IMG/VR virus record: IMGVR_UViG_3300010005_000003
Location: 1-35,017 of that record
Origin: a virus
Lineage: Duplodnaviria > Caudoviricetes
Strand: one strand, 5' to 3'
DNA length: 35,017 nt
The translations under genes and the position numbers were made by a program. This document shows, piece by piece, positions 1 through 10,523 of this stretch. Under the pieces are notes generated by a model that saw only the letters and a program-made list of their open reading frames with translations, was not told the DNA's origin and did no database searches. Every line of letters starts with the position of its first letter. Positions within the stretch are counted from its first letter, which is position 1.

Positions 1-2466
1 CGCCTCGAAGAAGAGGCTCGCGGCAAGACAATTGCCCGCTTCCACAAGGAACACTTAGAGGGGACTTTAGGGGAGACCTTTAGTGAAACCTTTATGGGTT
101 CACACCTCCTGAAACAATATTTCATTCCCTACGAAAAGGGTATCTCAGAGTGGCTCTCTAAGGCCAACTCAGGAAGGGCTGGAGCCCGGAACCTGTCTGC
201 GAAGCTGCTGGATGGGATCGACACACCGACGATCACCTTCCTGATGCTCAAGGCGATCCTGAACAAGGTCTGCGTCTATTTCGAGAACAAGCCGTGCTCG
301 CTCACCAGCCTTTGTCTCTATGGCGCCAGCCTCATCCACGACGAGATGCGCCTCAGGGAGTTCGACGAGCTACACGCTAAGCTCTCCAAGCGCATCCACG
401 AGGACTTCAATCAGCGTGAGCTTCCCCGCTACAAGCGTGAGGAGTACATGCAAAGGGAGTTCGCCAAGCAGAACATGGACTGGGCTGTCTGGACGAAGTC
501 GGACATGCTCCACGTCGGCATGGCCCTCCTGGACATCTTCCGTGAAGTCACGGGTGACATCGAAGTGGCCACCACCGGGTCGGGACAGGCGAAGATGGAC
601 ATTGTCCGTCCGTCGCTGGGTCTCATCCAGGCCGTCGAGATGACCGCAGATCACTGCGAGGCTCTCTTTACGACCTACTTCCCCATGGTGATCCCTCCGG
701 TTCCCTGGTCGCTCGATACGCTCGACCGGGGCGGTTACCTGACGCACAACGTGTCTCCCTATCCGCTCGTCAAGAACAGCAAGAAGGCGTACCGCGAAGT
801 GCTCCGCAAGGCTGTCCGCGATGGGACCGTGAGCCGGGTGCTGGCTGGTGTCAACGCCCTCCAGGAGACCGCCTGGAAGGTCAACGAGCGTGTCCTCGAC
901 GTCATGGAGTGGGTCTATGAGCGCAACATCAAGTGCGGCAAGCTGCCCCTGGCTGAAGACATAGAGCCCGATCCACCGCCGATGTCCCTTGAGGGCCTCG
1001 ACCGGGATGACCCGAGGGTGAAGGAGTACCGGGCGCATTGCTTCAAGATCCACGAACACAACCGCCGCATCGTCGGCAAGCGCGTGATGGCCTCCAGGTC
1101 ATTCTCCATAGCTCGCAAGATGGCCAAGTATGGCGCCATCTACTTTCCTCACGATCTCGACAGCCGAGGCAGGGCATACCCCAGGACCTCGGCCCTTCAC
1201 CCGCAAGGACCGGACTATGTCAAAGGCCTCCTTCAGTTTGCGAAAGGCAAACGTCTCGGCACAGAAGGCCGCTACTGGCTGGGTGTGCACGGAGCTAATT
1301 GTTATGGGGAAGACAAGCTACCTCTGGACGAACGCTTCGCATGGGCTGTCAATCATCTCGACCTCGCCCGACGTGTGGCCCAAGACCCCCGGAAAAATGC
1401 TTCCGAATGGACGAAAGCAGATAACCCTGCTCAATTCCTTGCTTGGTGCTACGATTGGGCCGAAGCCCACGCGACCGACCGCCCCGAGGATCATATAAGC
1501 CACCTCCATGTGGACCTCGACGCAACCTGCTCGGGCCTCCAGCACTTCTCGGCAATGCTCCGCGATGCGGTGGGCGGCTTCCACGTCAACATGACGCCCA
1601 ACAAGGTGCGCCAGGACGTCTACGGCGCCGTCGCCACGGAAGCCCTGAAACTCATCGAGATGGACGCCAAGAGCCGCTCGGACACCGCCCAGGTGGCCCA
1701 GGCGTGGCAAAGCTTCGGGGTCTCCAGGAGCATCGCCAAGCGGCCCGTCATGGTGAAGCCCTACGCTGGCACCCGTCAGTCCTGCACCACCTACGTGGCC
1801 GACAGCGTCAACGAGATGCTCGACGACGGACACCCGATGCCCTGGCCCAAGAAGGAGCTTTGGGACTTCAAGGTGTACGGCTCGGGCAAGATCTGGGAGG
1901 CGATCCCCAAGGTCGTGGTGGCCGCTGATGGCGCCATGAAGTGGCTCTCGACGATCTCCCGGCTGGTCGGCAAGTCTCAGCCCGAGATCAAGCGGATCGA
2001 GTGGACAACCCCGCTCGGCTTCCCGGTCCACCAGTACAAGTTCGACGTGGTCTCCCGCAGGGTCAAGACCAAATTCGACGGGGCGATCATCAAGCCCCGC
2101 CTGACGGAGGATGGCGACAACCTGGATGCCCGAAAGATGGCCTCCTCGGTGGCCCCTTCGTTCGTCCACAGCCTCGACGCATGTCACCTCCAGGCCACCA
2201 TAGCGGCGGCTCGGGAAGAGGGCATGACGGATTTCGCGGCTGTTCATGACAGCTTCGGGGTTCACGCCTGTGACATCCCCAAGTTCACCCGGATCATCCG
2301 CGAGCAATTCGTGAAGATGTATTCCGAGCACGATGTGCTGAGCGAGTTCCTTGAGAGCGCTCTGCCGCTGATCGCTGAGGAGTTCCGAAAGGATATTCCC
2401 CCGGTGCCAGCAAAGGGTTCCCTGGATCTCCAGGGCATCCTTGAGAATGAGTTTTTCTTTAGCTAA
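1..2466 (+). CDS. gp1: T7-like single-subunit DNA-directed RNA polymerase (5' end truncated by the window edge)
   Basis: Frame is open from base 1. Motifs DSRGRAYP, DATCSGLQH (motif A), KRPVMVKPY (motif B), VHDSF (motif C), and C-terminal FFFS (T7 has FAFA). Confidence 0.98.
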   Translation, partial: RLEEEARGKTIARFHKEHLEGTLGETFSETFMGSHLLKQYFIPYEKGISEWLSKANSGRAGARNLSAKLLDGIDTPTITFLMLKAILNKVCVYFENKPCSLTSLCLYGASLIHDEMRLREFDELHAKLSKRIHEDFNQRELPRYKREEYMQREFAKQNMDWAVWTKSDMLHVGMALLDIFREVTGDIEVATTGSGQAKMDIVRPSLGLIQAVEMTADHCEALFTTYFPMVIPPVPWSLDTLDRGGYLTHNVSPYPLVKNSKKAYREVLRKAVRDGTVSRVLAGVNALQETAWKVNERVLDVMEWVYERNIKCGKLPLAEDIEPDPPPMSLEGLDRDDPRVKEYRAHCFKIHEHNRRIVGKRVMASRSFSIARKMAKYGAIYFPHDLDSRGRAYPRTSALHPQGPDYVKGLLQFAKGKRLGTEGRYWLGVHGANCYGEDKLPLDERFAWAVNHLDLARRVAQDPRKNASEWTKADNPAQFLAWCYDWAEAHATDRPEDHISHLHVDLDATCSGLQHFSAMLRDAVGGFHVNMTPNKVRQDVYGAVATEALKLIEMDAKSRSDTAQVAQAWQSFGVSRSIAKRPVMVKPYAGTRQSCTTYVADSVNEMLDDGHPMPWPKKELWDFKVYGSGKIWEAIPKVVVAADGAMKWLSTISRLVGKSQPEIKRIEWTTPLGFPVHQYKFDVVSRRVKTKFDGAIIKPRLTEDGDNLDARKMASSVAPSFVHSLDACHLQATIAAAREEGMTDFAAVHDSFGVHACDIPKFTRIIREQFVKMYSEHDVLSEFLESALPLIAEEFRKDIPPVPAKGSLDLQGILENEFFFS

Positions 2467-2469
2467 ACA

Positions 2470-2490
2470 CCTTCGATAACGAAGAGGAAA
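2470..2490 (+). repeat. 21-bp direct repeat, copy 1 (CCTTCGATAACGAAGAGGAAA): palindrome plus RBS
   Basis: Exact match to 3121-3141. Contains CTTCG-N4-CGAAG overlapping a GAGG Shine-Dalgarno. Confidence 0.9.
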
Positions 2491-2496
2491 TGAAAA

Positions 2497-3099
2497 ATGA
2501 TGGACTTTCAAAAAGGCGACCGCGTCGAGCGCACCACCGTGCAGAACGGGCCTGATGTTCCGGTGGGTTCGAAAGGGACGGTCATTGGGAAACAGTACGG
2601 CCTGACCGTTGTCGCTTGGGACGGGGGGCCGCGCCACAATCGCAACATGCCCCGCCACCTCAAGAAGATTGCCGACGCGCCGCGCATCAAGGTCGGTGAC
2701 CGCGTCGTCTTCCGGAACTACAAGTTCGGCAGGGATTGCTGCGGCACCGTCTCCCGGATCAACGGCCAATGTGTGTGGGCCGAAAACTGGTCTGTCGGCA
2801 GCCGCAAAGGCTTCCTTATGATGGAAGACCTCGAAGTGATCGAAGAGCCGAAGCCGTTCGCCAAGCCCCAGGTTGCCCCCAAGCCGAACAACTCCGGTTC
2901 CTATATCGTGGCCCTCGAAGACGAGGACGGGCTGCATCCCAACAAGAACCCCAAGGTTCACCACGACAGCGGCGTGGCACTGCTCGAAGCCGAGCGGCTC
3001 GCCAAGAAGCACGGCGGCAAGTTCGTCGTCCTGAAGCGTATGGCCCACGCCGAGAGGCCCCCGGTGATCATCCCGGAGACGACACTGGTCGTCTATTGA
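2497..3099 (+). CDS. Hypothetical protein with two SH3/KOW-like repeats and a C-terminal 'EAERLA' phage domain
   Basis: GAGG RBS and phage-like codon usage. Repeated FQKGDRV / IKVGDRV starts. Confidence 0.85.
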   Translation: MMDFQKGDRVERTTVQNGPDVPVGSKGTVIGKQYGLTVVAWDGGPRHNRNMPRHLKKIADAPRIKVGDRVVFRNYKFGRDCCGTVSRINGQCVWAENWSVGSRKGFLMMEDLEVIEEPKPFAKPQVAPKPNNSGSYIVALEDEDGLHPNKNPKVHHDSGVALLEAERLAKKHGGKFVVLKRMAHAERPPVIIPETTLVVY

Positions 3100-3120
3100 G
3101 ATCACACCTTTAACTGAATG

Positions 3121-3141
3121 CCTTCGATAACGAAGAGGAAA
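3121..3141 (+). repeat. 21-bp direct repeat, copy 2: palindrome plus RBS
   Basis: Exact match to 2470-2490. Confidence 0.9.
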
Positions 3142-3146
3142 CAGAA

Positions 3147-3455
3147 TTGATCAACATCATCATCCGCCTTGCCATCGCCTCGGGGCTCCTGAAGCCGACC
3201 ACCGACATGATCATCGGCGGCATCGCCAAGTCCATCGACAGCCTCACCAAGGTCTCCGAGAAGCACCAGAAGGTGCACGACAAGGCCGAGGCTGAAGCAG
3301 CCGCCGCCGAGACCCGCCGTCTGGACGCGATCCGCAGGGCCAACGAGCGCAAGGAAGCCCAGCACGAGGCTGCCAAGACCAAGGCCGCGAAGGCCCGTGA
3401 AGAGTTCACCAAGGCCGAGCGCGTCAAGCAGAAGCTGGCCGACCTGATCTCGTAA
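3147..3455 (+). CDS. Hypothetical coiled-coil protein (TTG start)
   Basis: GAGG RBS, Ala/Lys/Glu-rich helix, GC3-biased codons. Confidence 0.85.
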   Translation: MINIIIRLAIASGLLKPTTDMIIGGIAKSIDSLTKVSEKHQKVHDKAEAEAAAAETRRLDAIRRANERKEAQHEAAKTKAAKAREEFTKAERVKQKLADLIS

Positions 3456-3461
3456 TTCTCA

Positions 3462-3477
3462 GGCCCCTGCGGGGGCC
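3462..3477 (+). other. GC-rich intergenic hairpin without U-tract
   Basis: GGCCCC-TGCG-GGGGCC just after the stop codon. Confidence 0.6.
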
Positions 3478-3527
3478 ACCCTCCCAGAACTCCCCAAGAA
3501 AACAAAAGACTACCAAAAGGAAATACC

Positions 3528-3767
3528 ATGAACGCCACTGCTCGCATGAAGTCCATCCGCGCCAACGCCGGTTACGTTGCTTCCTCCGTCCACTACAACC
3601 GCCGCAAGTTCGACAAGCAGTACGAAGTCGTCGCCCGTCTCTATGACGCCCAGGTGGACGAACTCGGCCTGAACATTGGCGGCGAGGTGGTCCTCGACGT
3701 CCGCGCTGACCGCGAAGACGCTCTGGCCTCCGTGCGGTTCTTCCGTGGCCAGGAAGTCGCTCGATGA
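3528..3767 (+). CDS. Hypothetical protein
   Basis: AAGGA RBS; ATGA overlap with the next gene. Confidence 0.85.
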   Translation: MNATARMKSIRANAGYVASSVHYNRRKFDKQYEVVARLYDAQVDELGLNIGGEVVLDVRADREDALASVRFFRGQEVAR

Positions 3768-4018
3768 TCTTCAAGCGCCGCTGCCCCGAATGCGCCGGGT
3801 CCTTCTACACGGACACCGAGGCGCCCAGCACCCACTGCCAGTCTTGCACCGGCACCCACGACGACGCGGAGCAGAAGCGCCGCGATGCGTCCCTGATCGA
3901 ACAGGCGAGCGCCGCACACGTCACTGCGGCTCCCCAGAGTGTTGACCCCCGGGCTGGCTACGACACCTCGAAGCGGCCCCGCAAGCGCAAGGCTGCTCAG
4001 GATGCACCGGAAGTATAA
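3764..4018 (+). CDS. Putative zinc-ribbon protein
   Basis: CPEC...CQSC; translationally coupled to the upstream gene. Confidence 0.75.
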   Translation: MIFKRRCPECAGSFYTDTEAPSTHCQSCTGTHDDAEQKRRDASLIEQASAAHVTAAPQSVDPRAGYDTSKRPRKRKAAQDAPEV

Positions 4019-4025
4019 CCCCCTG

Positions 4026-4196
4026 ATGATCTCAGATCTACTCGACGCTGACTTCGATGATCTTGAAGAAAGCTTCGCCGCTCACTTCGCGGACGATTTC
4101 ATCACCAACGAAACTGGGAGGCGGGTTCGTCCCGCTCCCCTCTCTGACGACCTCATCGGCACCTCAAGGCGCCACACCTCCACCTACAAAGGCTAA
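4026..4196 (+). CDS. Small hypothetical protein with acidic N-terminus
   Basis: ATG at 4026 in the 3939..4196 frame (MISDLLDADFDDLEES...). Fills the gap up to SSB. Confidence 0.5.
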   Translation: MISDLLDADFDDLEESFAAHFADDFITNETGRRVRPAPLSDDLIGTSRRHTSTYKG

Positions 4197-4198
4197 CA

Positions 4199-4813
4199 TT
4201 GGCCAAGAACGAAACGATCACCCTCCCGAAGGGTATTGCGGTATTCCCCGCGCTCTGCCGACCGGACACCAAGTACCACGACCTCGGCACCTACAAGGCC
4301 AACACCCGGGTGCCCCTGGCTGAAGCCGAAGCGACCATCAAGAAGCTTCAGGTTGTCGCCAAGGCGTGGACCGGCAAGGCCTTCCCGAAGGCCAAGAACC
4401 CGCTCTGGGAAATGGAGATTGACCGAGAGACCGGCGAAGAGACCGGCTTCGTGATCTTCAAGGCCTCGGTGAAGAACCGACAGGGCAAGGAAGGCAAGCT
4501 CTGGGACCGCCGTCCGCTGCTGATCGACAGCAAGAAGAAGAAGCTCCCCGGCGAGACCAACCCCTGGGGCGGCACCGAGTACCGCGTCAAGGCTGAGATC
4601 TATTGCTCCGAGTTCGGCGGCAAGAAGTCCGTGTCTCTCCAACCGACCGTCGTCCAGATCATCAACCTCAAGTCCGGCCAGGGCGTCGAGGAAGATCTGT
4701 CTGACTTCGACGAGGAAGACGGCTTCGAGGGCTCCACCGACCCGCGTCTGAGCGACGACGACTTCGACGATGACACTGGTGGCGACACCAGCGGCGCGGA
4801 TGAAGAGTATTGA
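4199..4813 (+). CDS. gp2.5: Single-stranded DNA-binding protein (T7 gp2.5-like)
   Basis: TPKG-like start (ITLPKG..FP.L..PDTKY), VSLQPTVVQIINL, acidic tail ending in an aromatic residue, synteny. Confidence 0.93.
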   Translation: MAKNETITLPKGIAVFPALCRPDTKYHDLGTYKANTRVPLAEAEATIKKLQVVAKAWTGKAFPKAKNPLWEMEIDRETGEETGFVIFKASVKNRQGKEGKLWDRRPLLIDSKKKKLPGETNPWGGTEYRVKAEIYCSEFGGKKSVSLQPTVVQIINLKSGQGVEEDLSDFDEEDGFEGSTDPRLSDDDFDDDTGGDTSGADEEY

Positions 4814-5195
4814 TCCGAACAGCTACCGCTCTGGTTTAGAGCGCAACATGGCCCGTCAGCTTCGGTTGGCGGGTCGTGACTTTCGGTACGAGGCGGTCAA
4901 GATCGACTACCTCAAGCCAGCGAAGAAGGCGAAGTATAATCCGGACTTCACCATCACCAAGAGTGATGGCTCGATAATGTATGTCGAGACGAAGGGCCGG
5001 TTCCTCACGGAAGATCGCCAGAAGCACCTCTTGATACGACAGCAACACCCCGAGTTGGACATCCGGTTCATCTTCCAGAACGCTCACGCGAAGATCGGAA
5101 AAACTTCGAAGACCACGTATGCCAAATGGTGTGACGACAAGGGCTTCAAGTGGGCCGACAAGGGGATCATTCCGAAAGCATGGCTTGATGAATGA
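4800..5195 (+). CDS. gp3: Endonuclease I / Holliday junction resolvase (T7 gp3-like)
   Basis: YRSGLE, YNPDF, VETKGRF, HPELDIRFIF, TTYAKWC. Confidence 0.96.
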   Translation: MKSIDPNSYRSGLERNMARQLRLAGRDFRYEAVKIDYLKPAKKAKYNPDFTITKSDGSIMYVETKGRFLTEDRQKHLLIRQQHPELDIRFIFQNAHAKIGKTSKTTYAKWCDDKGFKWADKGIIPKAWLDE

Positions 5196-5679
5196 CGACA
5201 GTATGCGGCGCGAGGATGGCTCGTGGGACCTCCACAAGCTGATCCATGCGCTGATCCCAACGCACGAACAGTTCCTCATGTTTGAGGTCGCCAGGATCGC
5301 CCCAAGGGGCCTTCAGGACCTCCTCGTGATGCTGTGGCAGCAGCGCTTGGTCTACGACAAGCTCCTCGCTGAGCACCTCAAGCTCAAGCAGGACATCTAC
5401 GACAACTCCCCGGCGCCGCAACTCATGGCCCAGATGTACTACGAAGGCGAGGCCTACGAGAAACCCTGGGAAATGAAGAAGAGTTATCGGCTCGACTGGA
5501 AGCCGAAGATGACCGGCTTCATTGAAATCCCCTCCCAGACCTTCGAGCAGACCCGCGACCGCCATGAGTGTTTCAGGGTGATCGTCGAGCAGATGGTCGA
5601 GGCCTTCAAGCGCGAGGCCGAGAGAGCCATCCCCCGAGAAATGCACCGCATCTTCACCCAAGCGAACCCAATTGGATGA
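5188..5679 (+). CDS. Hypothetical protein
   Basis: Overlaps the gp3 stop and gp4 start, typical codon usage. No amidase motifs although it sits at the T7 gp3.5 position. Confidence 0.8.
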   Translation: MNDDSMRREDGSWDLHKLIHALIPTHEQFLMFEVARIAPRGLQDLLVMLWQQRLVYDKLLAEHLKLKQDIYDNSPAPQLMAQMYYEGEAYEKPWEMKKSYRLDWKPKMTGFIEIPSQTFEQTRDRHECFRVIVEQMVEAFKREAERAIPREMHRIFTQANPIG

Positions 5680-7363
5680 CACCAACGAGAGGGCAATCCT
5701 GACGCATCAGCCCTGCCCATCCTGTGGGTCCACCGATGCGCTCTCTGTCTACCCCGACCACACCTATTGTTTCTCCTGCGAGACCCGTGGGGACGCCGAG
5801 GGCTTCGAAGCAGTCGGCACCGGCAGCAAGCTGTCCGAGGACTTCTACCGCCTGGAATACGCAGCGATCCCCGCGAGGAGCATCACTGAGGAAACCGCCC
5901 GGTTCTGGTCCTACGGCTTCGCTCAGTACCACGGCAAGAAGACCCACTGCGCCCAGTACCTCGACGACAACCGAACGGTGGTCGCCCAGAAGTTCCGGAC
6001 CCGCGACAAGCAGTTCCCCTGGATCAACCGCAGGGCCTTCACGGGGCTCTATGGGCAGTGGCTGTGGCGCCGTGGCGGCAAGCAAGTGGTGATCACCGAG
6101 GGTGAAATCGACGCCATGTCGGTCTCCCAGGTGCAGAACCACAAGTGGCCCGTCGTGTCCGTCTGCGATGGCGGCGGCAAGAACGCCGTGAACAACATCA
6201 AGGAAGCCTACGAGTGGCTCTCGACGTTCGACAAGATCATCCTGTTCTTCGACAACGACGAGAAGGGCAGGGCGTCTGTCGATCTCCTCAAGAAGCTCCT
6301 GCCGGTCGGCAAGGTCTACATCGCCTTCACCCCTGAGGGCTACAAGGACCCCAACGACCTCCTGATGGCTGGCAAAGGCAAGGCCATCATCGACGCGATC
6401 TGGGAAGCGAAGCAGTGGGTTCCCGCTGGCATCGTGACGGGCTCGAAGATCATCGAGCGGCTCAAGAACCGGCCCCCGGTGACGAGCTATCCGTACCCCG
6501 ACATCATGCCCGAGTTGAACCGCAAGGTGCTCGGGATACGCCTGGGGGAACTCGATACGTGGACGTCAGGCACCGGCATGGGCAAGACGACCATCATCAA
6601 GGCCCTCCAGAACCACTTCTTCCACACCACTGATTTCAATCAGGCCCTCATCCACCTTGAGGAGCCCCTGGAGGATACCGGCGATGACCTCATTGCCTAT
6701 GAAGTTGGCCGACGTTTCCAGGTGGAGCTTCCCAGCGATGGGGAGACCGCCTTCCGAGATACCCCCGAGTACCTCGCCGCCGCTGAAGCGCTCTTTCTGG
6801 CAACAGATGCAGAGGGTCACAGTCGTCTCCAGCTTTATGACGCATTTGGCTCGCTTGAAGACGACAGCCTTTACCAGACCATCCGGTATCTCGCGATGGC
6901 CTGCGGGGTCAAAGTCTTCTGGCTCGACCACCTTTCGATCCTGGTCTCAGACGGTAAGGAGGACGATGAACGAAAGCGCATCGACGCCATCATGCACAAC
7001 CTCAAGAGCCTGACCGTGGAACTCAACATCTACATCGGGCTCATCTCTCACCTCAGGAAACCCCCAGGAAATGGCAAGAGCTTTGAGCAGGGCGCTGTCC
7101 CTAGCTTGGACGATCTGCGTGGCTCTGGTGGCATCAAGCAGCTTAGCAATGGCGTCTATGCCATCTCGCGAAATCAGCAAGATCCCAACCCAGTTGCTCG
7201 CAATACTTCCACCATCACGGTCCTCAAGTGCCGCAAAACGGGCCGCACTGGAACCGCCGATCATCTGACATTCGAAGACGACACTGGCCGGATTGTCGCC
7301 GGGGTTGACCCCAACTCCTTCGACGACTTCGACGACGAGGCACCCTCCGATGTCGGATACTGA
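5672..7363 (+). CDS. gp4: DNA primase/helicase (T7 gp4-like)
   Basis: Zn finger CPSC..CFSC, TOPRIM EGEIDA / FDND, Walker A SGTGMGKTT, LDHL, SHLRK, LRGSG. Confidence 0.98.
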   Translation: MDDTNERAILTHQPCPSCGSTDALSVYPDHTYCFSCETRGDAEGFEAVGTGSKLSEDFYRLEYAAIPARSITEETARFWSYGFAQYHGKKTHCAQYLDDNRTVVAQKFRTRDKQFPWINRRAFTGLYGQWLWRRGGKQVVITEGEIDAMSVSQVQNHKWPVVSVCDGGGKNAVNNIKEAYEWLSTFDKIILFFDNDEKGRASVDLLKKLLPVGKVYIAFTPEGYKDPNDLLMAGKGKAIIDAIWEAKQWVPAGIVTGSKIIERLKNRPPVTSYPYPDIMPELNRKVLGIRLGELDTWTSGTGMGKTTIIKALQNHFFHTTDFNQALIHLEEPLEDTGDDLIAYEVGRRFQVELPSDGETAFRDTPEYLAAAEALFLATDAEGHSRLQLYDAFGSLEDDSLYQTIRYLAMACGVKVFWLDHLSILVSDGKEDDERKRIDAIMHNLKSLTVELNIYIGLISHLRKPPGNGKSFEQGAVPSLDDLRGSGGIKQLSNGVYAISRNQQDPNPVARNTSTITVLKCRKTGRTGTADHLTFEDDTGRIVAGVDPNSFDDFDDEAPSDVGY

Positions 7364-7718
7364 CCAGATCTTCGAACGTGCCGAGGTCCTCGCATGGGGC
7401 GCCACCGAGCACGAAGAACTCATCCCCAACTACATCGCAGCAACCAAAGAAGCCCGGGCCCTAGAGGGTGCCCCGGGATGGAAAGGAAAGCGTGGCATGA
7501 CCCAGGTCGAAATGATCCTGAACCACATCATGAAGAACGGCTCGATCACCCAGCGTGAGGCCTATATCGATTACGGCATCCAGTCGTTCCATCGGCGCCT
7601 CACCGACCTCAAGCAGGAGGGGTTCACCCTGATCGGTCGCCCCAGTCGCCACCCGGTGACCAAGCAGGAATACACCCGCTACTACCTCCCCGAGACGCTC
7701 CCGAAGGAGGCCGCATGA
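7350..7718 (+). CDS. Putative winged helix-turn-helix DNA-binding protein
   Basis: C-terminal TQVEMILNH..GSITQREA...YGI.SFHRRLTDLKQEG pattern typical of small phage HTH proteins. Confidence 0.8.
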   Translation: MSDTDQIFERAEVLAWGATEHEELIPNYIAATKEARALEGAPGWKGKRGMTQVEMILNHIMKNGSITQREAYIDYGIQSFHRRLTDLKQEGFTLIGRPSRHPVTKQEYTRYYLPETLPKEAA

Positions 7719-7810
7719 GCATCCTAGAGGCGGTCTTCACCGCGCTCGTCTTCGGCCTCGTCTGGTGGGTCCTGGTCCGCTCTCTGCATCCCGACAGGCT
7801 GGTTGAGTGA
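7715..7810 (+). CDS. 31-aa single-pass membrane protein (not in the ORF track)
   Basis: AAGGAGG RBS and ATGA overlap. MSILEAVFTALVFGLVWWVLVRSLHPDRLVE. Confidence 0.75.
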   Translation: MSILEAVFTALVFGLVWWVLVRSLHPDRLVE

Positions 7811-7965
7811 ACCCCGACGATCACACGCGAAACGACATCCCAGGCAATATCAGGGTCTCCCGAAAGGGGGACCTTCTTGTTTTGACAACCCGCCTCGCGA
7901 CCATCCAGGTGCCCATGAAGAGGGCCAAGGAACTCGCCCAGGCTATCCTAGAGGTTTCCCAATGA
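7807..7965 (+). CDS. 52-aa hypothetical protein (not in the ORF track)
   Basis: GTGA overlap at the start and ATGA overlap at the end. MNPDDHTRNDIPGNIRVSRKGDLLVLTTRLATIQVPMKRAKELAQAILEVSQ. Confidence 0.65.
   Translation: MNPDDHTRNDIPGNIRVSRKGDLLVLTTRLATIQVPMKRAKELAQAILEVSQ
7852..7883 (+). terminator. Possible intrinsic terminator inside the 52-aa ORF
   Basis: AGGGTCTCCC-GAAA-GGGGGACCTT stem-loop followed by CTTGTTTT. Confidence 0.5.
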
Positions 7966-8306
7966 AGATCGGCATCATCGCCACGCTTCTCGCCGCCACC
8001 CTGGCACTCGCCTCCTGCAACGACCCGAACAGCCCTGGTCCCCAGCCCGACGAAGACTGCGAACTGGAGAAGAAGAAGATCAGCATGGTCGAACCCATGC
8101 CCAACTTCATCCATCAGGCTGGCGCCGTGGTGGTCGCCCGACCGGCCATCGTCTCCCGCCCTGTGATCACCTCACGCTCGACCAGTCGGTCATCCAGCCG
8201 CTCCTGGTCTTCCCGCTCGAAGTCCTCGACGTACCGCAGCAAGCCCTCCGTCAAGGTGCCCTATGCGGCGCCGACCGGCTACCGCTGGGTCTGGGACTGC
8301 GACTGA
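7962..8306 (+). CDS. Putative lipoprotein with Ser/Arg-rich region
   Basis: GAGGT RBS. Signal peptide II MKIGIIATLLAATLALAS-C (lipobox LASC). Confidence 0.85.
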   Translation: MKIGIIATLLAATLALASCNDPNSPGPQPDEDCELEKKKISMVEPMPNFIHQAGAVVVARPAIVSRPVITSRSTSRSSSRSWSSRSKSSTYRSKPSVKVPYAAPTGYRWVWDCD

Positions 8307-8503
8307 TGGATGACCCGACGCGCCCCTGGGGCTTCTTCATGATCCTCCTGACGGTGGCCCTCGCGGCTGCCCTCTGGTTCCACGACACGGCCAAGACGCC
8401 GGAAGCCCCGCGTCCCCTCCCGGTGACATCCTACTGCTCCGACGAGGACGGCCACTTCTACCGCTGCGATGACCCCTGGGTCACCCGGGTCTACACCATC
8501 TAG
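8306..8503 (+). CDS. Small membrane-anchored protein
   Basis: TGATG coupling, N-terminal transmembrane helix, two Cys in the C-terminal part. Confidence 0.75.
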   Translation: MDDPTRPWGFFMILLTVALAAALWFHDTAKTPEAPRPLPVTSYCSDEDGHFYRCDDPWVTRVYTI

Positions 8504-8531
8504 CAGCGCTTCTACACCTGGGTTTAACCCA

Positions 8532-10523
8532 TTGAAAACTCTACTATTTGACATCGAGACCAATGGGTTGCTCGACACGATGACCCGTGTGCACTCGCTT
8601 GTCATCAAGGACATCGACACCGGGGAAGTCCTCTCGTTCACCGACGAGACCTACCCCGGCAAGTTCTACAAGCCCGTCGCTGACGGCGTCCGCATGCTGA
8701 TGGAAGCTGAATGCATCATCGGCCACAACGTCATCAAGTTCGACCTTCCGGCGCTCCAGAAGCTCTACCCCTGGTTCCAGTTCGACCGCAAGCGCGTGTT
8801 CGATACCCTGGTTGCCGCCCGGGTGATCTGGCCGCAGGTCGTCGATCTGGACATGATGAAGATCAGGGCAGGGAAGACCACCCTGACGCCCAAGCTCGCT
8901 GGCAGCCACTCCCTGGAGGCGTGGGGTCACCGCGTGGGCAACTGGAAGGGCGACTTCTCGGCGGTCAAGAAGGCCGAGGGTGAAGCGCTCGGTGTCTCCA
9001 AGGAAGAGATCGACAACTGGATTTGGGCCGAGTGGTCCAAAGATATGCAGGATTACTGCGAGCAAGACGTGGAGGTCACGCACCTCCTATTCAATCGGAT
9101 TGTCTCGAAGAACTATTCCACCCAGTGCCTGACGCTGGAGCATGAAGTTGCGTTCATCATGGCCGAGGTGGAGCGTAACGGCTTCAACTTCGACATGAAA
9201 GCCGCCGAGGACCTGTATCGGCAACTCGCTGGCATCCGTGAGGAGATGGCCCAGGAACTGCGGGACATCTACCCGCCCTGGGAGGTCAAGAACGGCCCAC
9301 CCTTCGTCCCCAAGAGGGACAACGCGAGGCTCGGCTACAAGGCCGGTGTCCCCGTCCAGAAATGGAAAACCCTCGTCTTCAACCCGAACTCCCGGGACCA
9401 CATCGCGGATCGTCTGATGACGGTCAACGGGTGGAAACCCACGGAGTTCACCGCCACGGGGAAACCCAAGGTGGACGAAGACGTGCTCTCAGCGCTGCCC
9501 TATCCCCAGGCGCAGCGTATCGCAGAATACATGACCATCCAGAAGCGGCTTGGTCAGATTGCCGAAGGTGACAATGGCTGGATTGGAAGTGTTCAACGAG
9601 ACGGTCGAATACATGGTTCGATCAACCCGAATGGAGCGGTCACAGGTCGTGCAACGCATAGCCGACCAAATGTCGCACAGGTTCCGAAAGTTGGGACCGT
9701 ATATGGCGCCGAATGCCGAGCCCTCTTTTGTGCGACTTCCGGGAAGACCCTCCTTCTTGGTTGTGACGTCTCAGGCCTTGAACTCCGAATGCTCGGTCAT
9801 TTCATGGCTGAATTTGACGGAGGCGCTTACGCCGACGAAGTCGTTAACGGTGACGTCCACACCCGCAACCAGCTAGCCGCCGGGCTGCCCACCCGAGACA
9901 ACGCCAAGACCTTCATCTACGCCTTCCTCTACGGGGCTGGCGACGAGAAGATCGGCAGCATCATCGGCAAGGGCAAGAAGGAAGGCGCGGCGGTCAAGAA
10001 GAAGTTCTTCGCTGAGGTCCCCGCGCTGAAGGACCTGATCGACAAGATCCAACTGATCGTCGGCAGCTACCGGCGCATCAAGGGTGAACCCACGGGACCG
10101 CAGAAGGACCGCTGGCGCTACTACAAGAAGGTCAAGGACCGCTGGTGGCGCAAGGGTGACAAGGTGAGCCCCCTCACGGGTCTCGACGGTCGCCTCCTGC
10201 ACATCCGCTCGGAACACTCTGCGCTGAACACCTTGCTCCAGTCCGCTGGCGCCATCGTGTGCAAGCAGTGGATCGTCGAGTTCGACCGCCTTCTGACCGA
10301 GGCTGGTATCCGGCATCTCGTCCGTATCGTCGCCTGGGTCCATGACGAACTCCAAATGGAGGTCGATCTGTCTCTAATCGTCTTCGATAGCGAAGGCAAA
10401 GCAACATCCATCGTCGGTGACATCTGCATCGCAGCCATCGTCGAGGCCGGTCACAAGCTCGGGATCACCGTGCCGCTGTCTGGCGAATACAAAATCGGAA
10501 ACAACTGGAAGGAAACGCACTGA
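8532..10523 (+). CDS. gp5: Family A DNA polymerase with 3'-5' exonuclease (T7 gp5-like); likely TTG start at 8532
   Basis: FDIETNG, GHNVIKFD, YCEQDV, DVSGLELR, RDNAKTFIYAFLYGAG, VHDE. Confidence 0.98.
   Translation: MKTLLFDIETNGLLDTMTRVHSLVIKDIDTGEVLSFTDETYPGKFYKPVADGVRMLMEAECIIGHNVIKFDLPALQKLYPWFQFDRKRVFDTLVAARVIWPQVVDLDMMKIRAGKTTLTPKLAGSHSLEAWGHRVGNWKGDFSAVKKAEGEALGVSKEEIDNWIWAEWSKDMQDYCEQDVEVTHLLFNRIVSKNYSTQCLTLEHEVAFIMAEVERNGFNFDMKAAEDLYRQLAGIREEMAQELRDIYPPWEVKNGPPFVPKRDNARLGYKAGVPVQKWKTLVFNPNSRDHIADRLMTVNGWKPTEFTATGKPKVDEDVLSALPYPQAQRIAEYMTIQKRLGQIAEGDNGWIGSVQRDGRIHGSINPNGAVTGRATHSRPNVAQVPKVGTVYGAECRALFCATSGKTLLLGCDVSGLELRMLGHFMAEFDGGAYADEVVNGDVHTRNQLAAGLPTRDNAKTFIYAFLYGAGDEKIGSIIGKGKKEGAAVKKKFFAEVPALKDLIDKIQLIVGSYRRIKGEPTGPQKDRWRYYKKVKDRWWRKGDKVSPLTGLDGRLLHIRSEHSALNTLLQSAGAIVCKQWIVEFDRLLTEAGIRHLVRIVAWVHDELQMEVDLSLIVFDSEGKATSIVGDICIAAIVEAGHKLGITVPLSGEYKIGNNWKETH

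Follow-up and report, generated by a model that had tools for sequence, protein, structure and literature searches.

Candidate +1-frame genes nested in the replication enzymes of a T7-like phage group of Rhizobiales, one with a free-standing homologue

Four nested frames and their wobble patches

The stretch analysed here, called the window throughout (35,017 nucleotides (nt), IMG/VR record IMGVR_UViG_3300010005_000003), is a linear virus record, about 81% complete. Its genes follow the T7-like order of RNA polymerase (RNAP), single-stranded DNA-binding protein, endonuclease, primase-helicase, DNA polymerase, exonuclease, portal, capsid, tail, lysis genes and terminase, and it has holin and endolysin matches. 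Our subject is four open reading frames (ORF1 to ORF4) that lie in the +1 frame inside the RNAP, helicase and DNA polymerase genes (Table 1). The nearest named proteins come from Rhizobiales genomes (about 62-71% identity for the helicase); there is no close cultured relative, the top phage records being only 49% (DNA polymerase) and 40% (RNAP) identical. In three integrated relatives host genes directly precede the RNAP gene at the prophage edge, and in two of these three an integrase lies about 40 kb from the RNAP/ORF1 locus on the same strand, at the opposite prophage end. The group is therefore temperate and, with its single-subunit RNAP and gene order, Autographiviridae-like, and the attachment site probably lies just upstream of the RNAP gene. 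No integrase was found within the window, which is an incomplete record. For comparison, helicase, RNAP and polymerase searches together with pattern scans yielded at least several hundred loci; 24 of them, picked by identity after dropping duplicates, were used for detailed codon alignments, and the surveys of the ORF1, ORF3 and ORF4 sites took in all distinct homologous sites.

Table 1. Coordinates of the host-frame genes, the nested frames and associated features (window positions unless a locus is named)
Feature	Position	Strand	Remarks
T7-like RNA polymerase, host frame	1..2466	+	PHROG 414, E 2e-227; 5' end cut by contig edge
Primase-helicase, host frame	5672..7363	+	PHROG 239
Family A DNA polymerase, host frame	8532..10523	+	PHROG 17; ORF open from 8469, homology begins near 8532
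ORF1, +1 frame, 93 amino acids (aa)	1217..1498	+	conserved core about 73 aa (to about 1438); spans T7 RNAP residues 439-530
Shine-Dalgarno-like AAGGA of ORF1, 7 nt before ATG	1205..1209	+	formed by RNAP Gln-Gly codons; AAGGA or AGGGA in carriers
ORF2, +1 frame, 109 aa, GGAGG 9 nt upstream	6684..7013	+	doubtful, young or chance; patch 6674-6859
ORF3, +1 frame, 65 aa, hydrophobic N-terminal half	7071..7268	+	position and frame of T7 gene 4.2
ORF4, +1 frame, 100 aa	9574..9876	+	spans T7 gp5 residues 404-512 including motif A; z -7.5
Control patch, A/T-rich wobble, short direct repeats, no open alternative frame	40..200	+	codon skew
Free ORF1 homologue	L352:737-1015		profile scan and locus reading

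The first-pass annotation had described core genes with G/C-ending codons that are interrupted by A/T-ending patches where +1 ORFs with an ATG and a motif resembling a ribosome-binding site occur, and all four ORFs were found as it placed them. Each is preceded by a Shine-Dalgarno (SD)-like motif (AAGGA, 7 nt from the ATG, for ORF1; GGAGG, 9 nt, for ORF2; AGGA, 12 nt, for ORF3; AAGG, 5 nt, for ORF4), where the list of motifs was our own choice and includes one weak 4-mer. The G/C fraction at third codon positions (GC3) is 0.76-0.79 in the three host genes and falls to 0.37-0.55 in the patches. When the GC3 deficit was conditioned on the amino acids in windows of 60 codons, z values of -6.1, -4.4, -4.2 and -7.5 were obtained for ORF1 to ORF4, respectively. 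Judged against the simulated genome-wide minimum (median -3.46, 1% quantile -4.55), the ORF1 and ORF4 patches therefore exceed chance, and those of ORF2 and ORF3 taken alone are borderline. The best-fit patch edges start 10-25 nt ahead of each ATG, and the edge tracks the ORF start in all 8 cases tested. By manual tally the 24 genes of the window hold 20 distinct internal alternative-frame ORFs of at least 60 codons that begin with ATG; an SD-like motif is present in only four of these, namely ORF1 to ORF4, and the same four alone have z of -3.4 or lower (the remaining 16 range from -1.9 to +2.2). Also, over six genes in 16 genomes, z is below -2.5 in 17 of 26 +1 ORFs with an SD-like motif (a figure that counts ORF1 many times), in 8 of 73 +1 ORFs without one and in none of 23 +2 ORFs. 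At ORF1, ORF2 and ORF4 stops interrupt the antisense and +2 frames. The ORF3 site does have one open antisense frame in the window, but three of the four carriers have it broken. None of the four has a family match in PHROGs, Pfam (above cut-off) or PADLOC, no known defence or anti-CRISPR profile scores above its cut-off (ORF4 against AcrF31 reaches 13.4 bits, the cut-off being 27), and ORF2, ORF3 and ORF4 have no tblastn match in phages.

Two observations caution against reading too much into a patch or an open frame by itself. In one genome open frames of such length are nothing unusual (P 0.08-0.41 for ORF1 to ORF4). A fifth patch, at 4-183 of the RNAP gene, reaches z -4.8, yet in 12 of 13 genomes each of the five other frames contains stops there; because such a patch occurs where no alternative frame is open, a patch alone is no proof of dual coding. 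This 5' patch may instead hold integrase arm sites or operators near attP, inside the coding sequence. Over all the evidence, dual coding, as which the patches had first been read, is strongly supported at ORF1, moderately at ORF3 and ORF4, and weakly at ORF2.

ORF1 in the RNA polymerase gene and its free homologue

The case for a nested gene is clearest at ORF1. Its frame is open over 73-97 codons in 11 of 12 distinct relatives with an RNAP at least 58% identical, and an ATG stands at the same codon in 9 of the 12. From each genome's own codon usage, the probability of an open frame in these close relatives is 0.16-0.52, and that of TAT given tyrosine is 0.10-0.51. Among 178 distant RNAPs the site is open in 13 and the ORF1 ATG is present in none. 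Across the carriers +1 is the only alternative frame without stops. Identical A/T-ending codons at identical residues make up 0.30 of the overlap as against 0.02-0.07 in eight other bins of the RNAP gene, the 5' bin having 0.15. RNAP protein identity in the overlap is unchanged at the same time (0.68 as against 0.65-0.78 elsewhere), so a recent shared import does not explain the patch, which persists across RNAPs that are only 60-69% identical. Plain nucleotide divergence does not discriminate in closely related runs: in run X1 the ORF1 region has diverged to the same degree as its flank (54 of 406 against 95 of 757 nt). ORF1 ends before the motif A aspartate, which we take to be T7 D537. ORF4 does cover motif A of the DNA polymerase.

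One lineage, L005, has lost ORF1. In a quick RNAP tree built without the overlap it is nested inside a well-supported clade of carriers, and its ATG, open frame and skew are gone together (TAC for TAT, two stops, GC3 0.85/0.74). The opposite state was found at locus L352. A HMMER profile scan of 1.84 billion representative proteins with the ORF1 alignment returned one full-length homologue, P0122 (E 8e-21). A word-index search with the same alignment gave no match, though the HMMER scan found P0122. The other 25 of the 26 hits were set aside as multi-stretch matches, mostly to long proteins, five of which were inspected and proved to be repeats. The free family is a cluster of four, and the two members compared closely are identical over their first 66 residues with differing tails. 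At L352 the homologue has a DUF6456 gene on one side and HNH, terminase and portal genes on the other, with head genes of HK97 type, and no T7-like RNAP gene was found in 6,012 of the 8,802 nt of this contig. Its similarity to the carriers rises near the start signal (ribosome-binding site) and is lost again around the stop. A shift of one base upstream gives a frame that is still RNAP-like (tblastn E 2e-8), with 9 of 25 invariant residues lost, several of them radically.

The two loci were compared in a reciprocal test over 60 codons, using the sites invariant in 12 carriers; here the RNAP-wobble sites are the second codon positions of ORF1. L005 has changed 9 of 16 RNAP-wobble sites and 4 of 61 other sites, and the free copy 1 of 16 and 13 of 61, respectively (Fisher p 0.006 and 0.034). 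Likewise, 11 of 14 invariant ORF1 residues and 16 of 25 invariant RNAP residues are kept in L352, as against 6 of 14 and 23 of 25 in L005. ORF1 also has the pattern expected of an overprint, that is, an ancient and widespread RNAP frame, a new frame restricted to one clade, and host synonymous constraint that was lost together with the ORF in L005. On these comparisons of sequence ORF1 is very likely a protein gene under selection.

Because the RNAP frame is ancient and L352 retains a remnant of it, the direction would have been overprinting first and export to an unrelated, HK97-like temperate phage later. A recent neutral capture at L352 is conceivable, since the RNAP frame there is also free of stops over the 74 codons compared. 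Several further points weigh against a simple account of ORF1. Its carriers are related to each other, so that the counts are not independent; two of the 11 (L085, L087) have ACG at the start; and the position of the stop varies (73-97 aa), with five carriers ending after 73 codons through a CTA leucine codon. Just one free locus has DNA context; two samples, each of about 400 Rhizobiales genomes, yielded no further free copy, and neither did phage and plasmid records. Among the carriers are prophages of Maritalea mediterranea P4.10X (L086, with the ATG) and Aminobacter anthyllidis LMG 26462 (L085, with the ACG). It may be noted that L085 and L087 have an ATG preceded by an SD motif 29 codons upstream of the ACG, and that in L087 the skew covers this upstream extension as well (window-equivalent 1048-1195).

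An AlphaFold2 (AF2) model of ORF1 built from 12 sequences predicts a small beta-sheet domain of one short helix and five strands, with a mean predicted local distance difference test (pLDDT) score of 80, and 86-91 over residues 11-70; it counts against these figures that they stand without a matched model of a wrong frame. No clear structural relative emerged, the best matches having Z 5.2-5.4 at a root-mean-square deviation (rmsd) of 4.4-5.1 and Foldseek E above 0.1. The PDB sequence search gave a best E of 0.72, and the ESM Atlas gave no usable match.

Taken together, we hold with good though not full confidence that ORF1 is very likely a real small protein, likely born by overprinting, likely exported later, and most likely acting early on a host target. 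The first-pass annotation had supposed a set of proteins genetically locked to essential enzymes. This is not supported, as ORF1 is lost in L005 and free in L352, and ORF3 and ORF4 are patchy among relatives. On the sequence evidence the set is better described as accessory overprints that are gained and lost.

Frames in the helicase and DNA polymerase genes

ORF3 is the better supported of the two helicase frames. Its ATG and stop are both shared, 65 codons apart, in 4 of 12 close lineages, in which local GC3 is lowered relative to the gene (L099 group 0.49/0.80, L084 0.64/0.78, L001 0.64/0.83, L086 0.38/0.48), and identical A/T-ending codons amount to 0.21 in carriers against 0.05 in non-carriers. 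Three of the four lineages form one subclade. It counts against ORF3 that 44 of 225 distinct homologues are open at this site by default. ORF3 starts at about residue 471 of T7 gp4, where gene 4.2 starts at 475 in the same frame, presumably just after helicase motif H3, as in the gp4.2 family. No sequence likeness to gp4.2 was found by blastp or hhalign (probability 0.2%), and DUF5480 was not matched. Because the site is the same and the likeness is missing, independent origin at a permissive site seems more likely than descent from gene 4.2. As a whole ORF3 is likely a lineage-restricted overprint.

At ORF4 the picture is mixed. The frame is intact from its ATG in none of 14 closer polymerases, among which the ATG occurs only in L084 and L001, where the frame breaks after 39 and 6 codons. 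High-GC closer polymerases show no clear patch at the site (GC3 0.69-0.90). In the more distant L264 (53% identical overall), GC3 at the site is 0.54-0.55 as against 0.82-0.86 in most flanking bins, its patch (1590-2018) matches its open +1 frame (1609-2010), and this frame has its own ATG 31 codons earlier and a stop two codons past that of the window. L264 shares 18 of 35 A/T-ending codons with the ORF4 site; high-GC relatives share 6-8 of 34-39. The +1 identity with L264 (0.28-0.45) is not above that of the flanking shadow frames (0.39-0.48), which speaks against ORF4, as do the single-sequence fold (pLDDT 56), the 57 of 206 distinct homologues open by default, and run X5, in which one contig crosses ORF4 and whose 51 differences in 356 nt there are no fewer than in the flanks. 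Of the X5 differences 40 of 51 are listed, leaving out three C>T rows and eight differences near the ends; among those listed 31 of 40 fall at polymerase wobble sites (11 toward A/T, 10 toward G/C), and by manual check none creates a stop and the ATG is unchanged, so that in this close relative the frame appears to be open. ORF4 has no match in the protein search or viral scan. With about the same confidence as for ORF3, we consider it likely to be a lineage-restricted overprint, in this case a fast-evolving one. In phage T7 itself (L176 15563-15742) the +1 frame at the ORF4 site of gene 5 runs for 60 codons without a stop, contains several ATGs and has no annotated coding sequence (CDS); local GC3 is 0.33 against 0.52 for the gene, which may be chance.

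ORF2 has the best SD motif of the four, and its skew starts at its ATG. Against it stand a patch that covers the first 60 or so of 109 codons, a stop at the third codon in 11 of 12 lineages, and the absence of measurable skew in the sole open case (L007/L008, 66 codons). Nothing informative beyond the window supports ORF2. A real overprint is here an evenly balanced possibility at best, and we regard it as doubtful. Frames broken in relatives, which would speak against dual coding, were therefore found at ORF2 and in most relatives at ORF4. At window-equivalent 6782-6983, the ORF2 site, L120 has a different +1 ORF of 63 codons with skew, very hydrophobic and rich in tryptophan, that looks like a small membrane protein.

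An unlikely explanation, and one that concerns ORF2 and ORF4, is that the patches were recombined from lower-GC phages and have not yet ameliorated. Close kin diverge strongly at the ORF2 patch (less than 80% identity at 6723-6823 and 6728-6914, inside it), and 12-13 of 35-36 A/T-ending codons at the ORF4 site recur in low-GC genomes, but the best protein matches of every patch belong to the same clade as those of its flanks. Import is thus disfavoured for ORF4 and ORF2 and is not supported for ORF3. A good deal less probable is that the patches are non-coding constraints such as binding sites or RNA structure, with open +1 frames as by-products. The conserved RNAP 5' patch without any open frame and the frequency of open +1 frames in GC3-rich genes agree with this; the single stop-free frame at ORF1, the patch edges that follow the starts, and the free copy, which moves its changes away from ORF1 second positions, do not. 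For ORF2 it stays plausible. Low-GC import as the source of the ORF1 patch is hardly credible, as the patch spans RNAPs so divergent and vanishes where ORF1 is lost.

Some other places in the alignments and the window deserve mention. Lineage-specific +1 ORFs of 66-137 codons (z -4.5 to -5.4) occur in the helicase gene of L096, L005 and L098 at window-equivalent 5798-6185, close to where gene 4.1 lies in T7. L005, L099, L001 and L084 have skew and a mostly open +1 frame at the 3' end of the DNA polymerase gene (window-equivalent 10335-10515), where the window has a milder dip. An exact 18-nt repeat with an internal inverted repeat lies upstream of two genes, at 2470-2487 and 3121-3138; it has a 21-nt match in L001 (4794-4814) and is a candidate phage promoter or operator. 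A terminator-like hairpin is present at 7852-7885, between the helicase and DNA polymerase blocks. L097 and L098 are on a single metagenome contig in which the phage replication region occurs twice, about 43 kb apart, either as a tandem prophage or an assembly repeat.

Function, precedents and meaning

If ORF1 is translated, ribosomes would initiate internally on the RNAP message, and the protein would be made along with the gene that is transcribed first once the phage infects or the prophage excises. The patch would result from selection on the second codon positions of ORF1, which would keep the RNAP wobble sites off G/C. More generally, internal initiation on replication-gene messages may supply small accessory proteins. 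Since ORF1 is dispensable in one lineage and its free copy sits in a phage contig without this polymerase, to which it would be useful, its target is probably on the host side, for example a protein of defence or housekeeping. The function that we tentatively favour, at somewhat short of even confidence, is an early host-directed or counter-defence role, as proposed from timing, dispensability and transfer only.

The next reading, which we think less likely, is that ORF1 is real and acts as a regulator of the lysis-lysogeny decision or of transcription, or as an exclusion factor expressed in the lysogen. The carriers and the recipient phage are both temperate, the free copy adjoins the DUF6456 gene ahead of the packaging genes, and MotA-type domains appear among the weak fold matches (Z 4.0, rmsd 3.9, 68 residues aligned). 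These scores are at background level, however, surface charge is not conserved in the ORF1 alignment, and no sigma-70-like promoter was found upstream of ORF1 inside the RNAP gene. A cofactor or inhibitor of the phage's own RNAP, coupled to it by the overlap, would have an analogue in T7 lysozyme, which regulates T7 RNAP. Co-transcription and fixed linkage in 11 of 12 relatives would suit such a role, but L005 lost ORF1 with its RNAP intact and the L352 contig kept it beside HK97-type head genes without a T7-like RNAP over the part noted above, making it improbable.

Nested +1 genes in phages are already known, and it is the documented loss and export of ORF1 that is the notable part. In T7 (NC_001604) genes 4.1 and 4.2 lie, like ORF3, on the same strand and in the +1 frame inside the primase-helicase gene. 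Gene 4.2 encodes 112 aa and runs past the helicase stop, whereas ORF3 is fully nested with 65 aa; near the gene 4.1 site, relatives examined here also have +1 ORFs in the 5' part of the helicase gene. In the T7 record neither gene 1 nor gene 5 contains an annotated nested CDS. The leviviral sgl genes, according to the available text of PMC7693330, are small genes born de novo in the +1 frame of the replicase at several sites, mutually unrelated and sometimes more than one per genome. Here the phages are temperate with double-stranded DNA, and the product predicted for ORF1, which lies in an early gene, is a soluble beta domain and not a lysis peptide. Sgl proteins are small, usually have a transmembrane segment and cause lysis; in the window only ORF3 has a hydrophobic stretch (maximum 1.84 over Kyte-Doolittle 19-mers, as against 0.81-1.07 in the other three). 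Export to another phage is absent from that levivirus account as far as its available text goes.

In the Rz/Rz1 spanins a +1 gene is embedded in another and the architecture can change in evolution; according to the accessible part of PMC6139136, no family was found to include embedded as well as non-embedded members, and overlaps are argued to have arisen from separated genes. ORF1 differs in having a free homologue with a remnant of the host frame, which points from nested to free, and it has no lipobox cysteine or partner relation. A review of overprinting (PMC8227390, in its available text) gives as typical a taxonomically restricted novel frame, an ancient host frame and accessory roles; it covers mainly small eukaryotic viruses, and ORF1 shares the pattern of restricted new and ancient host frame. 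In prokaryotic systems de novo gene birth is hard to prove, the ancestral sequence rarely surviving (PMC12315717, as far as its text was available). Neither a gene nested in a T7-like RNAP nor an overprinted phage gene that had been exported turned up in the literature searched (titles and abstract openings in an open-licence library), a scope that does not establish absence from print.

On balance we lean, with modest confidence, towards viewing the replication genes of rhizobial T7-like prophages as nurseries, in which +1 frames come into use again and again at a small number of sites in the RNAP, helicase and DNA polymerase genes. One of them would have developed into a folded protein that founds a new family, and an unrelated temperate phage would have captured it from start signal to stop; in that phage the polymerase frame is decaying. 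Four states are in hand, namely RNAPs without ORF1, RNAPs that carry it, the L005 lineage, which has lost it, and the free copy at L352, in which a remnant of the host frame survives. These make it testable whether overprinting yields folded proteins and supplies small phage genes of unknown origin. It may also be noted that in T7-like phages annotation overlooks such early genes, which would be lost from any such polymerase that is recoded. If the nursery view is true, these loci would hold a complete record of the birth, loss and export of one gene, and would reveal a source of phage ORFan and counter-defence genes.

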